Below, in pieces: positions 5,759-48,616 of a DNA stretch of 64,000 bases. The translations under genes and the position numbers were made by a program. Position 1 is the first letter of the stretch, and every line of letters begins with the position of its first letter. Source of the stretch: an uncultured bacterium (GTDB lineage: Bacteria > Patescibacteriota > Minisyncoccia > Phycocordibacterales > DATDWN01); assembly GCA_903861205.1 (NCBI GenBank), contig CAIOTC010000003.1, forward strand, positions 7,964-71,963, written 5' to 3'. The notes under the pieces were generated by a model. The model had not been told where the DNA came from. It ran no database searches and saw only the letters and a list, made by a program, of their open reading frames with translations.

Positions 5759-5994
5759 GAGGTTCGACCTTAATGCCCAATTTCCCAAGGTCGAACCTCG
5801 GATGCGGGTGCAAAGTCACCACTAAACAAAATCTCGTACTGACATCTTTTCGGCAACTCCGCAGTGTCGCGAGCCGGTCTTGTCAACGACCCAGCCTTCG
5901 GGGCTGGGCTCATTGACAAGTCGCGACCGAGGACGGTAACAAACTTTTCGCTGGAAAAGTTTGTGGTGACGAAAAGATGTCAGTACGAGATTTT
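5759..5994 (+). other. Highly structured ~240-nt element (nested long hairpins) at the right boundary of the insertion, upstream of the S14 gene
   Basis: 11-bp hairpin 5759-5769/5789-5799; 25-bp perfect stem 5828-5852/5970-5994 enclosing a 62-nt hairpin 5866-5927 (7+8+7 bp stems, ttcg loop). Confidence 0.5.
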
Positions 5995-6060
5995 GTGTTG
6001 ACTTTTCAAGTCACTTTTGGTAGTCTTACCACAGCTTGAAAAAGCTTCGTTTTTGTAAAT

Positions 6061-6246
6061 ATGGCTAAAACATCTGTAAAAGCACGAGCTCGCAAAACAC
6101 CGAAATTCTCAACTCGGGCTGTTAACCGATGTTTCCGATGCGGACGAAAGCACGCTTTCATGCGAGACTTCGGTCTTTGCAGAATCTGCTTCCGCGAGCT
6201 GGCCAATGAGGGGAAGATTCCGGGGGTTAAGAAATCAAGTTGGTAG
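6061..6246 (+). CDS. rpsN: 30S ribosomal protein S14 type Z (zinc-binding, 61 aa)
   Basis: [48 protein letters not shown]; four Cys. Confidence 0.9.
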
Positions 6247-6805: not shown

Positions 6806-6922
6806 TTTTAAAGAAATTTTCAATTTTTAATTTAAAATTTTCAATGAATTTCCAATTTAAAAATTTAGAAATTTAAAATTCAATAAAAATTAAAAATTCT
6901 AAATTAAAAATTATTCAAAATC

Positions 6923-9094: not shown

Positions 9095-9205
9095 AAACAA
9101 TTTAAAATTTATAATTTAAAATTTTTAATGAATGTCTAAATTTAAAAATTGAATCAATGAAAATTCATTAAAAATTAAAAATTCTAAATTAAAAATTATA
9201 TTGTC

Positions 9206-12076: not shown

Positions 12077-12176
12077 TTTTCAATTTTTAATTTAGAATTT
12101 TTAATGAATATCTAAATTTTAAAATTTAATAATTGAAAATTCATTAAAAATTAAAAATTTTAAATTAAAAATTTAT

Positions 12177-19030: not shown

Positions 19031-19033
19031 AAA

Positions 19034-19422
19034 TGTGGAAGTGCCGACATTGAAGTCGGATGCAAAGAAAGAATTGAAATGGGTCTACAACGCTTAGTTT
19101 GTTTCAGGTTTTAGATCTTGCAGCTATAAAACAAACAAAACACTGCAAAATCGAGTCTCTATTTTTTAGAAAATTTTATGAGACAATAAAATTTTCGAAT
19201 CCGAATTTATTAGAACTACGTATCCCTATCGGATGTTGGGAAGGTAATCCTTTCTTACGCTCTCGCGTAGGAAAAAGCGAAATTGTTTGCCGTAAAATAC
19301 GGAGAAACAGTTGCTCGTTTAGTTAAGTTGTTTACACTTAGCTTTCCGGACTGTTTTAGAAGGATCCGGTACTTCGCGTCGCGCATGACAATGTGCAATC
19401 TATGTCAAAACCTGTCACCCCC
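19034..19422 (-). ncRNA. ssrA: tmRNA (SsrA), ~387 nt; proposed tag ANNFAFSYARA
   Basis: - strand 5' GGGGGUGACAGGUUUUGACAUAG...; 3' T-arm CCGACUUCAAUGUCGG; acceptor CACUUCC pairs with GGGGGUG including G3:U70; resume GCA at 19290, stop UAA at 19257-19255; immediately downstream of smpB. Confidence 0.7.
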
Positions 19423-19556
19423 ATACTAAAATACAATTTAAAATTTTTAATTTAGAATTTAAAATTAATTTAAAAATTGAATCATTGAAAATTCAATAAA
19501 AATTAAAAATTTTAAATTAAAAATTATTCTTGCATTCTCGCATCAGAGTGCCAAAT

Positions 19557-20000
19557 TTATTTGTCAACGAACTCGCGGCGGGTTTCTCGTTCAGTTTCGC
19601 GCTTTTTGGTCGTTTCGCGCTTGTCGAATTTTTTCTTGCCGCGGGCAATGACCACATCCACCTTGATTTTCTTCCCTTTATTATACACCGACACTGGCAC
19701 AATTGTCAAGCCTTTGGTTTTCTCGGCTTTTTCCAGGTCGTAAATCTCGTTTTTGTGAAGCAAAAGCTTGCGATTGCGGTACGGATCGTATTCTTTTGGC
19801 GTGTTGCCGACTTGGTACGGCGGAACAAACATGCCGACCACGAATGCTTCGGCTCCGCGGACTGTGACATACGCGCCTTCAAGGGAACCATGCGCGCCCC
19901 GCAGGGATTTGACCTCATAACCAAAAAGCTCTACTCCGGCCGAGTATTTTTCCAAAATTTCGTAAAGAAAGGCTGCTTTTCGATTTGATATTAAGGCCAT
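19557..20000 (-). CDS. smpB: SsrA-binding protein SmpB
   Basis: 147 aa with the SmpB signature (GYEVKSLR...L.LHKNEI). Confidence 0.9.
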   Translation of the reverse strand: MALISNRKAAFLYEILEKYSAGVELFGYEVKSLRGAHGSLEGAYVTVRGAEAFVVGMFVPPYQVGNTPKEYDPYRNRKLLLHKNEIYDLEKAEKTKGLTIVPVSVYNKGKKIKVDVVIARGKKKFDKRETTKKRETERETRREFVDK

Positions 20001-20029
20001 AAGGTGATTTTAACATAAATTTAGTCTGC

Positions 20030-20278
20030 TTGACAGATTTTGCGGTGGGTGTAGCGTAAACATTGGAGAACAGTTGGGAGGGGAGGCAATGGGTGTGAGT
20101 CGCAACCGCGCGTCCCTGTAGGACTCCTTTTCTCTAGTCGCAAGACCCTGTTCCCGTAAAATGACCGGTCCATACAGACGCGGTCTGGGTGGGTACTCCG
20201 GAACACCTCTGGAGACCTTGCTCACGAGCCCCTCCCTGCTTACAAAGCATAGGGGCTTTTCATTTACATAACTTCACT
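20030..20278 (+). promoter_or_regulatory. GC-rich structured 5' leader upstream of ftsH with mutually exclusive terminator/antiterminator (candidate riboswitch/attenuator; class unknown)
   Basis: TTGACA at 20029; terminator gcccct(20228-33)...aggggc(20251-56)+tttt; gggagggg (20078-85) is complementary to cccctccc (20229-36), which overlaps the terminator 5' arm. Confidence 0.4.
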
Positions 20279-20315
20279 TTCATTTTGTTAGTTTTAATGT
20301 ATACTATTGTCACTT

Positions 20316-22250
20316 ATGGCCCAGGAAAATCCCAAAAAACCGACCAAGCCAGGTCTCAAAAAAACGCCCAACAAAAAGCCGGAATCGGAGGGCGGTTCTT
20401 TGGTCAGCTATATTTTGACCATTCTCATCATTTTTATCCTGCTTTCGTCGGCTTATTCTTTCTTTTCAAACAGAGCCAAACCGGCACAAAATATTTCTCT
20501 TTCACAAGTTGCCGCCGATATTGGATCCGGTTCGATTACTTCCATTTCGGTTTCCGGCGATGATTTGAGTTTGACGTACAAAAACGGCGATGTGAAGAAT
20601 TCTAAAAAGGAGCCGGGCGAAGCGTTGTCGCAAACACTGGTCAACTACGGCGTCGGCATGGCCCAGATTGCCAAAATAAATATTGATATCAAAAATGAAA
20701 ATGGTCTTGGCTACTGGATTTTGAATTTGTCGCCGATTATTATTCCACTTTTGTTCATTTTGGTTTTCATCTGGTTCATCACGCGCCAAGTCAGGGGAGC
20801 GGGCATGCAGGCGCTGACATTTGGACAATCCAAAGCGCGCATGATCGATCCGAACGACAGCTCGCAACGTGTGACATTTAAAGACGTAGCCGGAGCCAAG
20901 GAGGCCAAGGAAGAACTTTCCGAGATTGTTGATTTTTTGCGCAATCCGAAAAAATTTCTGGACATTGGCGCGAGAATTCCAAAAGGCATCTTGCTCATGG
21001 GCGCTCCTGGCACGGGGAAAACTTTGCTGGCTCGGGCGGTTGCGGGCGAGGCTGGTGTAGCTTTCTTTTCTATTTCCGGATCGGAATTCGTGGAAATGTT
21101 TGTCGGTGTCGGTGCCTCGCGCGTGCGGGATTTGTTCCTGATGGCCAAAAAAACCGCTCCGGCTATTATTTTTGTTGATGAAATCGATGCGGTCGGGCGA
21201 GTGCGCGGTGTCGGTGCTGGCGGGGGAAACGACGAACGCGAGCAAACGCTCAACCAGATTTTGGTGGAGATGGACGGCTTCGAGCCGAATGAAAAAGTGA
21301 TCGTTATGGCGGCCACCAACCGGCCGGACGTGCTCGACCCCGCGCTCTTGCGTCCGGGCAGATTTGACAGGCGAGTGACTTTGGAACTTCCGGACAGGGC
21401 TGATCGCGAAGAAATTTTGAAAGTGCACTCGACCAAAAAACCGTTGGCCGAGGACGTTAATTTGACCGTCATTGCCGAGCGCACGCCTGGATTTTCCGGC
21501 GCCGATTTGTACTCGCTCATGAACGAGGGCGCTATTTTGGCCGCTCGCGAAAACCGCCAAAAAGTTTCGCAATACGACCTCATTCGTTCGATCGAAAAAG
21601 TGATGCTTGGTCCGGAACGCAAGAGTCACATCCTCTCCAAAAAAGAAAAAGAAATCACCGCTTTCCACGAGGCCGGGCATGCCGTGCTGGCCTCCATTTT
21701 GCCATATGCCGATCCGGTTCACAAAATTTCAATAATTTCACGCGGACATGCTGCCGGTTACGTTTTGAAGTTGCCCCTTGAGGATCGCAAGTTGCAATCC
21801 AAAAAAGAATTTCTGGACGATATTGCGGTTTCTCTCGGTGGTTATGTAACAGAGAAAATGCTTTTTGATGATTTGACCACTGGACCGTCGAATGACCTGC
21901 AAGTTTCAACCGCGTTGGCTCGCGATATGGTGACCAAATACGGCATGTCGGACAAACTCGGACCTGTGGCTCTCGAAGGGCAGGGTGGAAAAGTTTTGTT
22001 TGGCCGAGGTGTGGAAGAAAACGAATACTCGGAAAAAGTTGCCATGGATATTGACGGCGAAGTTTCGCGCATCATGAAGGAGGCGGAAACGAAGGCAATA
22101 AACACCATCACTGAAAATCGCAAACTGCTGGATGCCATCGCGCATCGCCTGACCGAAAAAGAAACCATCGAACGCGCCGAATTCGAAACCATTTTGGTGG
22201 CGCATGGCATCACGCCAAAGCAAAAACTCGACATTGAGCACAGCGGCTAG
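20316..22250 (+). CDS. ftsH: ATP-dependent zinc metalloprotease FtsH
   Basis: Two N-terminal TM segments, AAA+ Walker [15 protein letters not shown] zinc motif; ATG 20316 (TTG 20307 also possible). Confidence 0.95.
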
Positions 22251-22565: not shown

Positions 22566-22638
22566 ACGCGCATAGCTCAGTTGGTAGAGCGGTCGACTTA
22601 TACTCGATTGGTCGGGGGTTCGAGTCCCTCTGCGCGTA
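22566..22638 (+). tRNA. tRNA with anticodon UAU (Ile, AUA-reading)
   Basis: Cloverleaf: acceptor ACGCGCA/TGCGCGT, D-arm GCTCAGTTGGTAGAGC, anticodon loop CTTATAC, T-arm GGGGGTTCGAGTCCCTC. Confidence 0.65.
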
Positions 22639-22645
22639 CAAAGAG

Positions 22646-48516: not shown

Positions 48517-48616
48517 AAGTTAAGAAGTTGAAAAAGTTTAATAAGTTGAATAAGGAAATGCAAGAAACTTATACAACTTATTTAACTAAAGCGAAGCGTA
48601 ACTTATTAAACTTGTA
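48516..48616 (+). repeat. Family-B intergenic element (aagttgaataag...ctaaagcgaagcgtaacttattaaac) abutting the gatA start codon
   Basis: Copies also at ~819-913, 1844-1935 and 2630-2722, each ending at the ATG of rplP, rplN and rplE. Confidence 0.6.

Follow-up and report, generated by a model that had tools for sequence, protein, structure and literature searches.

A candidate small RNA gene between divergent smpB and ftsH in an uncultured Patescibacteria genome

The GC-rich element and its bounding signals

The window studied here is a 64,000-nucleotide (nt) stretch of contig CAIOTC010000003.1 from an uncultured bacterium of the Patescibacteria (assembly GCA_903861205.1). By its nearest SmpB and FtsH loci the genome is Paceibacterota/Zambryskibacteria-like. 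The window carries a transfer-messenger RNA (tmRNA) gene at 19033-19422 on the minus strand (74 bits with the Rfam model), the SmpB gene at 19557-20000 on the same strand, and the FtsH gene on the plus strand from the ATG at 20316 to the end at 22250, both protein identities being confirmed by Pfam. Between the divergent smpB and ftsH lies a GC-rich element. We give even odds to the likeliest reading, an independent structured small RNA (sRNA) gene of ~200 nt (~20062-20261, plus strand), confined to a narrow lineage.

The island that the initial annotation had noticed in this spacer is real and lies at ~20050-20250. Its GC content is 0.55-0.58 across 20050-20249 (100-nt windows) versus 0.35 in the flanks, with a mean of 0.419 for the window and 0.19-0.37 for the other intergenic gaps. 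Because the ftsH coding DNA itself has a GC content of 0.5-0.64, the island is unusual solely as intergenic DNA. The spacer is identical on the contigs of the same organism (L104-L106). Here L001-L123 denote the relatives' loci, anchored on SmpB and FtsH, that made up the search space for homologs.

Promoter-like and terminator-like signals of its own bracket the element (Table 1), and both are kept in its homolog L108. The -35 hexamer TTGACA stands at the same place in L108 and in the units L107, L115, L117, L001, L003, L012, L093 and L085, which occupy the same slot without an open reading frame (ORF). Read on the opposite strand, the hexamer overlaps CTGTCA, the -35-like sequence of the predicted smpB promoter. 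The predicted -10 box is aligned to TAACGT in L108, and TA(A/G)nnT lies 16-17 nt from TTGACA in eight slot elements. Transcription of the element would start at ~20062-20064.

At the other end, the hairpin and T-run previously marked at 20228-20260 on the ftsH strand are confirmed, with slightly wider bounds. The 7-bp GC-rich arms (AGCCCCT, 20227-20233, and AGGGGCT, 20251-20257) enclose an inner TGCTT/AAGCA stem and are immediately followed by the U-run of TTTTCATTT, as in an intrinsic terminator. The consensus terminator scan did not list this hairpin, whose 17-nt interior exceeds the loop limit of the scan.

Table 1. Predicted parts of the element and the neighbouring promoter boxes
Feature	Position	Strand	Basis or remark
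-10 box of smpB, TAAAAT	20007-20012	-	promoter scan; TG-preceded; 6 nt before ATG 20000
-35 box of the element, TTGACA	20030-20035	+	perfect hexamer
-10 box of the element, TAGCGT	20052-20057	+	16 nt after the -35 box; fits TAnnnT; aligned with L108
Conserved 5' domain, P1-P3	20064-20136	+	RNAalifold consensus of window and L108; contains G-tract 20076-83
P1	20064-70 with 20130-36	+	RNAalifold consensus
P2	20076-80 with 20124-28	+	RNAalifold consensus
P3	20081-84 with 20113-16, plus 20086-87 with 20110-11	+	RNAalifold consensus
H4 hairpin with GNRA tetraloop, GTC-GCAA-GAC	20137-20146	+	GGTC-GAAA-GACC at the same place in L108
Single-stranded linker, CCCTGTTCCCGTAAAAT	20147-20162	+	largely conserved with L108; unpaired in the consensus
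H5 hairpin, GACC.GTC...GAC..GGTC	20163-20185	+	seven pairs kept in window and L108
Variable region	20186-20219	+	hairpin 20196-20214; T-box-like string 20185-20201; GACCTT 20214-20219
Intrinsic-terminator-like hairpin, then TTTTCATTT	20227-20265	+	fold; contains C-tract 20229-36
ftsH promoter box, TG-TATACT	20298-20305	+	10 nt 5' of ATG 20316; 3' of the terminator

The gene starts on both sides are compact. A TAnnnT box occurs 4-14 nt before the in-frame ftsH ATG in 83 of 94 distinct related loci, and is TG-preceded in 61 of the 83. Its commonest forms among the relatives are GTGTATACT and ATGTATAAT, and it occurs also in relatives without any element. The smpB -10 box is so close to its ATG that a leaderless smpB is implied. 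Two compact promoters, pointing away from each other, thus enclose the element. Among the window genes a TATAAT-type box 6-10 nt before the ATG is common, and most lack a Shine-Dalgarno (SD) sequence, an SD-like match being found at 12 of 58 gene starts. This suggests that leaderless or very-short-leader mRNAs are widespread in this genome.

Conservation, fold and the sRNA gene reading

Homologs were found only in L108-L111, four identical copies whose SmpB is 83% identical to that of the window (nhmmer E = 7e-19). They turned up via the contigs of the closest SmpB proteins. The element gave no nhmmer or blastn match in 80 SmpB-anchored genome loci or in 23 FtsH-anchored metagenome loci, and none beyond L108-L111 among the other loci (119 at the last search). 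A covariance model of the 5' domain matched, among 36 sources, only the window and L108. The close relatives L112 and L113 (SmpB 79% and 76%) and L121 and L120 (FtsH 89% and 86%) lack the element, and a protein search with the FtsH N terminus was uninformative.

The divergent smpB/ftsH arrangement is widespread among the relatives, and in ~36 of the 58 genomes that have it the spacer is only 50-130 nt, AT-rich and free of any insert. The conservation upstream of ftsH that the initial annotation had named as a check was found only in L108-L111, and most relatives with the arrangement lack the element. No match was found in viral contigs (three patterns), phage records or plasmid records that would point to an origin from a mobile element.

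The L108 element likewise lies between smpB and ftsH, and ftsH there has a TATTAT box of its own. Window and L108 are 75% identical over the 5' domain of ~125 nt (95 of 126 columns). The terminator arm segments AGCCCCTCCCTGCTT and GCATAGGGGCTTT are identical, and the terminator loop is ACAA in the window and of the UUCG type in L108. By comparison, the two lineages share only 51-52% identity at the fourfold-degenerate positions of the adjoining smpB and ftsH genes, and the rest of the spacer is unalignable. Hence the element appears to be under purifying selection.

No ORF accounts for this conservation above the neutral expectation, seen in both sequence and structure of the two distinct sequences. 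In L108 the ATG at 20089, which opens a 10-codon ORF, corresponds to ACG and the one at 20161 to AAG, and the antisense ORFs are not the same.

A consensus fold was computed by RNAalifold from the window and L108. In both, 28 of the 28 pairs in P1-P3, H4 and H5 are standard, with both partners altered in three pairs and a single partner in three others. G20082-C20115 of P3 is A-U in L108, and H5 has one compensatory change from U20169-A20178 to C-G. The H4 stem is kept, its GNRA loop turning from GCAA into GAAA. The variable region has ~50 extra, unalignable bases in L108, where GACCTT is the sole common part; its hairpin CUCCGGA/UCUGGAG is present in the minimum-energy fold of the window.

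When the 31 substitutions were randomly placed, the recomputed consensus fold had -17.3 ± 3.5 kcal/mol versus the real -30.8 kcal/mol, an energy reached in 0.4% of the simulations (p ~0.004). This test recomputes the consensus fold in each simulation and replaced a fixed-structure permutation (0 of 20000) that was partly circular. Over 241 nt, the fold has z = -3.13 on the plus strand and -0.10 on the minus strand.

These signals and their conservation suggest the following course. RNA polymerase would start at the -35-dependent promoter (TTGACA, 16 nt, TAGCGT), and the nascent RNA would fold locally into P1-P3, tying up the G-tract once its partners are made. Two small hairpins, one of them GNRA-looped, and then the variable region would follow, and transcription would stop at the conserved GC-rich hairpin and U-run. 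The terminator would insulate ftsH, which would be transcribed from its own TG-TATACT box as in the relatives without the element. Read-through may still exert a cis effect on ftsH.

The promoter and both transcript ends are predicted from the letters of the DNA, and the putative sRNA may act in trans. Candidate interaction sites are the unpaired conserved CUGUAGGA, the GGGUGU.AGUC loop, the CCCUGUUCC linker and the invariant C-rich CCCCUCCC. Likewise, the whole single-stranded linker at 20147-20162 is a possible interaction site.

Intergenic trans-acting sRNA genes of bacteria have a sigma-70-type promoter and an intrinsic terminator of their own and a length of 100-300 nt. The element resembles them in its promoter-like and terminator-like bounds, the lack of a conserved ORF, the narrow phylogenetic range and the variable middle between a conserved 5' part and the terminator. 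It differs in having no Rfam family and in its head-to-tail position directly 5' of an essential gene. No described family covers it, though its kind is a familiar one. An independent small RNA, which the initial annotation had offered as a fallback, fits the evidence best.

Several observations weigh against an sRNA gene, however. The covariation basis is thin with two distinct sequences, and three compensatory pairs are in themselves no more than expected (p = 0.18). TAGCGT is a weak -10 box, matching TATAAT at 3 of 6 positions, and was not called by the consensus promoter scan. Without the terminator the body folds no better than shuffles (z = -0.7 in the window and +0.16 in L108), so the thermodynamic signal is mostly that of the terminator. 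The U-run is short, with 4 U in the window and 3 in L108. Moreover, the element points into ftsH only 55 nt 5' of it, and read-through transcripts could express ftsH because initiation is mostly SD-free and the U-run is short. In a transcript that ends just after the C-tract, an antiterminator is the minimum-energy fold.

To our knowledge, no small RNA has been characterised in this uncultivated Patescibacteria lineage, and a search of the literature on Patescibacteria noncoding RNAs found nothing relevant. For the Patescibacteria as a whole, the candidate phyla radiation, small regulatory or structural RNAs are essentially uncharted. The element is a concrete candidate with a predicted promoter, fold and terminator that can be sought in metatranscriptomes. 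Only with demonstrated expression and a demonstrated partner would its practical importance be more than modest.

Weighing the other explanations

A riboswitch or attenuator leader of ftsH, the first proposal of the initial annotation, appears doubtful to us but is a real alternative. Here the 5' domain would be the sensor of some signal and, when it is unfolded, the G-tract pairs with the C-tract so that no terminator forms; transcription from the upstream promoter then enters ftsH and adds to its constitutive proximal promoter. The element indeed lies in ftsH orientation immediately 5' of ftsH in both lineages. It shows a riboswitch-like mosaic: the 5' domain and the terminator are conserved, CCCCUCCC being invariant, and the linker between them varies. 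The upstream tract is exactly complementary to the terminator 5' arm as claimed, GGGAGGGG pairing 100% with CCCCTCCC at 20229-20236 over 8 nt, and it lies at 20076-20083 instead of 20078-85. Forcing the antiterminator fold takes only 9.6 kcal/mol in the window and 5.5 kcal/mol in L108, and this fold wins in the truncated transcript mentioned above. The short U-run also suits the model, and a long-leader ftsH mRNA would still be translatable since most genes do without an SD. For the same reason we dropped the argument that a leaderless ftsH is untranslatable from read-through.

The pairing itself argues the other way. Of 1000 dinucleotide-shuffled versions of the body, 52 contained an 8-nt complement to the terminator 5' arm, a marginal p of ~0.05; the L108 complementarity is only 6 nt and at chance level (p = 0.67); and over ten ORF-less slot elements it was not significant overall. 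The antiterminator pairing is thus neither conserved nor covarying. G20082 became A in L108 and was compensated within P3 by C20115 to U with CCCCUCCC unchanged, so the proposed antiterminator of L108 is left with an A-C mismatch. A C-to-U change in the C-tract would suit both antiterminator and terminator, yet the tract is unchanged and could have some other sequence-specific role. The G-tract is buried in the 5' domain ~145 nt 5' of the C-tract with stable hairpins between them, and its local partners, 30-50 nt downstream, are transcribed ~100 nt before the C-tract. A leader would moreover be expected to share its transcript with the gene, whereas here the ftsH box, a sequence prediction, intervenes after the terminator; it is conserved in the relatives, most of which are without the element. 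The sensor domain does not recur upstream of homologous or linked genes (36 sources by covariance model, the other loci by nhmmer and blastn). The element is therefore like riboswitch and attenuator leaders in its structured domain, terminator, orientation and complementary upstream tract, but unlike them in the buried tract with locally compensated variation, the predicted promoter box after the terminator, the absence from most relatives and the lack of any known class. A terminator/antiterminator control of ftsH is not upheld, and with it falls the tempting but unsupported idea that a new riboswitch governs the gene of an essential protease.

The lack of a known class was tested with 4227 Rfam models including the curated riboswitches, T-box, 6S, signal recognition particle (SRP) and RNase P. 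The element was unmatched at the gathering score over the whole window and at E<=10 over 19950-20350, in accord with the earlier failure to assign a riboswitch class; the corresponding elements of 8 relatives gave no match at E<=5. The T-box resemblance noted earlier survives as a string, ctgGGTGGGTACtCCGg at 20185-20201; GGGUGGGUACUCCG, which precedes the terminator by ~25 nt, has a loose likeness to the T-box sequence AGGGUGGNACCGCG. A T-box identity is rejected, as the string is missing in L108, falling in a segment unalignable with it, and RF00230 gives no match; no Stem I or specifier was recognised, and ftsH is not amino-acid-related. That Patescibacteria hold here a divergent 6S, SRP or reduced RNase P RNA unrecognised by the Rfam models is very unlikely in our view. 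Such an RNA would explain a GC-rich RNA-like island in an AT-rich spacer by tmRNA-smpB, and Patescibacterial RNAs can score low, the tmRNA of the window with 74 bits versus 77-118 bits in the relatives. It would not be limited to two lineages, however, with unrelated sequences in the slot elsewhere. 6S RNA (RF00013) is comparable in size and as a poorly conserved GC-rich structured RNA, but it is a rod with a central bubble closed by its ends, whereas P1 closes the 5' domain locally, separate hairpins follow and no 5'-3' closing stem exists; it was rejected. By eye we found neither the domain IV motif of SRP RNA nor the P4 motif of RNase P RNA, the length being only ~200 nt, and rejected both RNAs, as well as a CsrB-like excess of GGA motifs.

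The element might instead be a non-functional or decaying remnant of cargo, for instance a leader and terminator left behind by a small gene that has disappeared, in a neutral slot. The slot does hold many unrelated insertions in relatives, the body folds no better than shuffles, and the SD-like GGGAGGGGAGG followed by the 10-codon ORF recalls the 5' ends of ORF-bearing cargo such as that of L018. A neutral remnant is nevertheless hard to reconcile with a 5' domain 75% identical and identical terminator arms at 52% synonymous identity and an unalignable adjacent spacer, or with substitutions that avoid or preserve base pairs; we hold it to be improbable. A protein-coding gene on either strand has almost no chance of being right. 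The region contains ORFs of 71 and 61 aa on the minus strand and of 36 and 10 aa on the plus strand, and the 71-aa ORF matched the library protein P0249 (E = 7.5e-11). This E-value is inflated by tandem repetition: P0249 carries the matching segment, 24 residues at ~50% identity, five times, and one copy on its own would be far from significant. The substitutions preserve RNA pairs, and a coding gene is refuted by the ORFs not being conserved in L108, where starts are lost and a ~50-nt insertion and small indels occur. P0249 has 251 aa in tandem repeats of 52 aa, each resembling 24 residues of the antisense translation of 20136-20207, and we judge it a chance match multiplied by the repeats.

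The variable smpB/ftsH slot and other observations

Among L001-L123 the smpB/ftsH spacer ranges from ~50 nt to >2 kb. Its cargo includes small Cys-rich proteins with a transmembrane segment and a zinc-ribbon-like part (L031, L032, L099, L100, L102, L103), a helix-turn-helix protein (L094), an ORF without a Pfam match (L018), a PemK toxin module (L116) and a PaaX-like protein (L089). In the examined slots, a -35/-10 promoter-like pair with TTGACA or a near variant adjoins smpB and points to ftsH, and a terminator lies 5' of the ftsH box. L076, with a minus-strand ORF, is the exception to this layout. The ORF-bearing cargo has strong GGAGG sites.

At least 8 further GC-rich units lack an ORF (L001, L003, L012 (= L091), L093, L085, L115, L117 and L005). 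These eight run from promoter-like to terminator signals over 110-330 nt at a GC content of 0.47-0.55. On the sense strand, five of them have folds well beyond those of shuffled sequences (z = -3.6 to -5.0). Apart from the pair of the window and L108, no ORF-less unit can be aligned with another. By eye, L012 and L093 look related with a 5' UGGAURAGUU motif and a similar order of hairpins, and L001 and L003 have a 3' part in common.

These data fit a permissive insertion site between two compact divergent promoters. The slot is like the variable islets between conserved core genes in its wide range of spacer lengths and in its unrelated cargo with promoter and terminator, but differs in holding, in this window, an RNA without an ORF. 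Neither an integrase nor repeats or att-like sites were identified at the slot. The sole possible trace of a junction is a pair of near-duplicates, CTTTTCATTT and CTTTCATTTT, at 20256-20265 and 20277-20286 after the terminator. They may mark an insertion or recombination junction or be part of the ftsH promoter. Relatives have a similar TTTCATTT before the ftsH box whether or not they carry cargo.

The slot may even be a dedicated expression site in Paceibacteria-type Patescibacteria, with TTGACA, 16-17 nt and TA(A/G)nnT by smpB and a terminator before the ftsH promoter. Its interchangeable cargo would then include at least six mutually unalignable ORF-less RNAs, several folding far better than shuffles. 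Taken jointly, such a slot with a fast-evolving RNA class, or else a new signal-responsive attenuator of FtsH, is unlikely. If the former were true, the window RNA would be one of a class of RNAs that are analogous in function and found only in these reduced-genome bacteria; the latter would add a conditional input to the essential FtsH protease. The smpB/ftsH spacer itself emerges as a variable site for cargo in these genomes.

As for the neighbouring genes, ARAGORN did not report the tmRNA of the window. A tRNA-Ile(TAT) gene at 22566-22639 is directly 3' of ftsH, and a tRNA stands at the equivalent position in many relatives. P0250 is a near-identical FtsH variant on a 2.4-kb contig. Among the SmpB relatives, P0013 stands at 97% and L107 at 86%. 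In L113, FtsH has 1078 aa with an intein carrying a LAGLIDADG domain, and P0139 is similar.

Other repeats occur in the window. A 26-nt AT-only motif, AAATTAAAAATTYTAAATTAAAAATT, has 15 copies where 0 are expected by chance (for example at 2321-2412, 6822-6912, 9106-9197, 12082-12173 and 19500-19525). The copies often make up inverted pairs, ~40 nt apart, in intergenic DNA, and one lies between the tmRNA and the 3' end of smpB. A near-identical 37-nt sequence, ACTTATTAAACTAAAGCGAAGCGTAACTTATTAAACT, is found at 874-910, 1896-1932, 2683-2719 and 48576-48612, immediately 5' of the ATG in four ORFs, and may be a shared promoter or leader or reflect a paralogous gene family. Finally, a 30-nt inverted repeat at 5826-5855 and 5967-5996, with arms 97% complementary and 111 nt between them, lies within an ORF-poor stretch of ~400 nt at a GC content of 0.46, located 5' of a zinc-ribbon S14-like gene (6061-6246).

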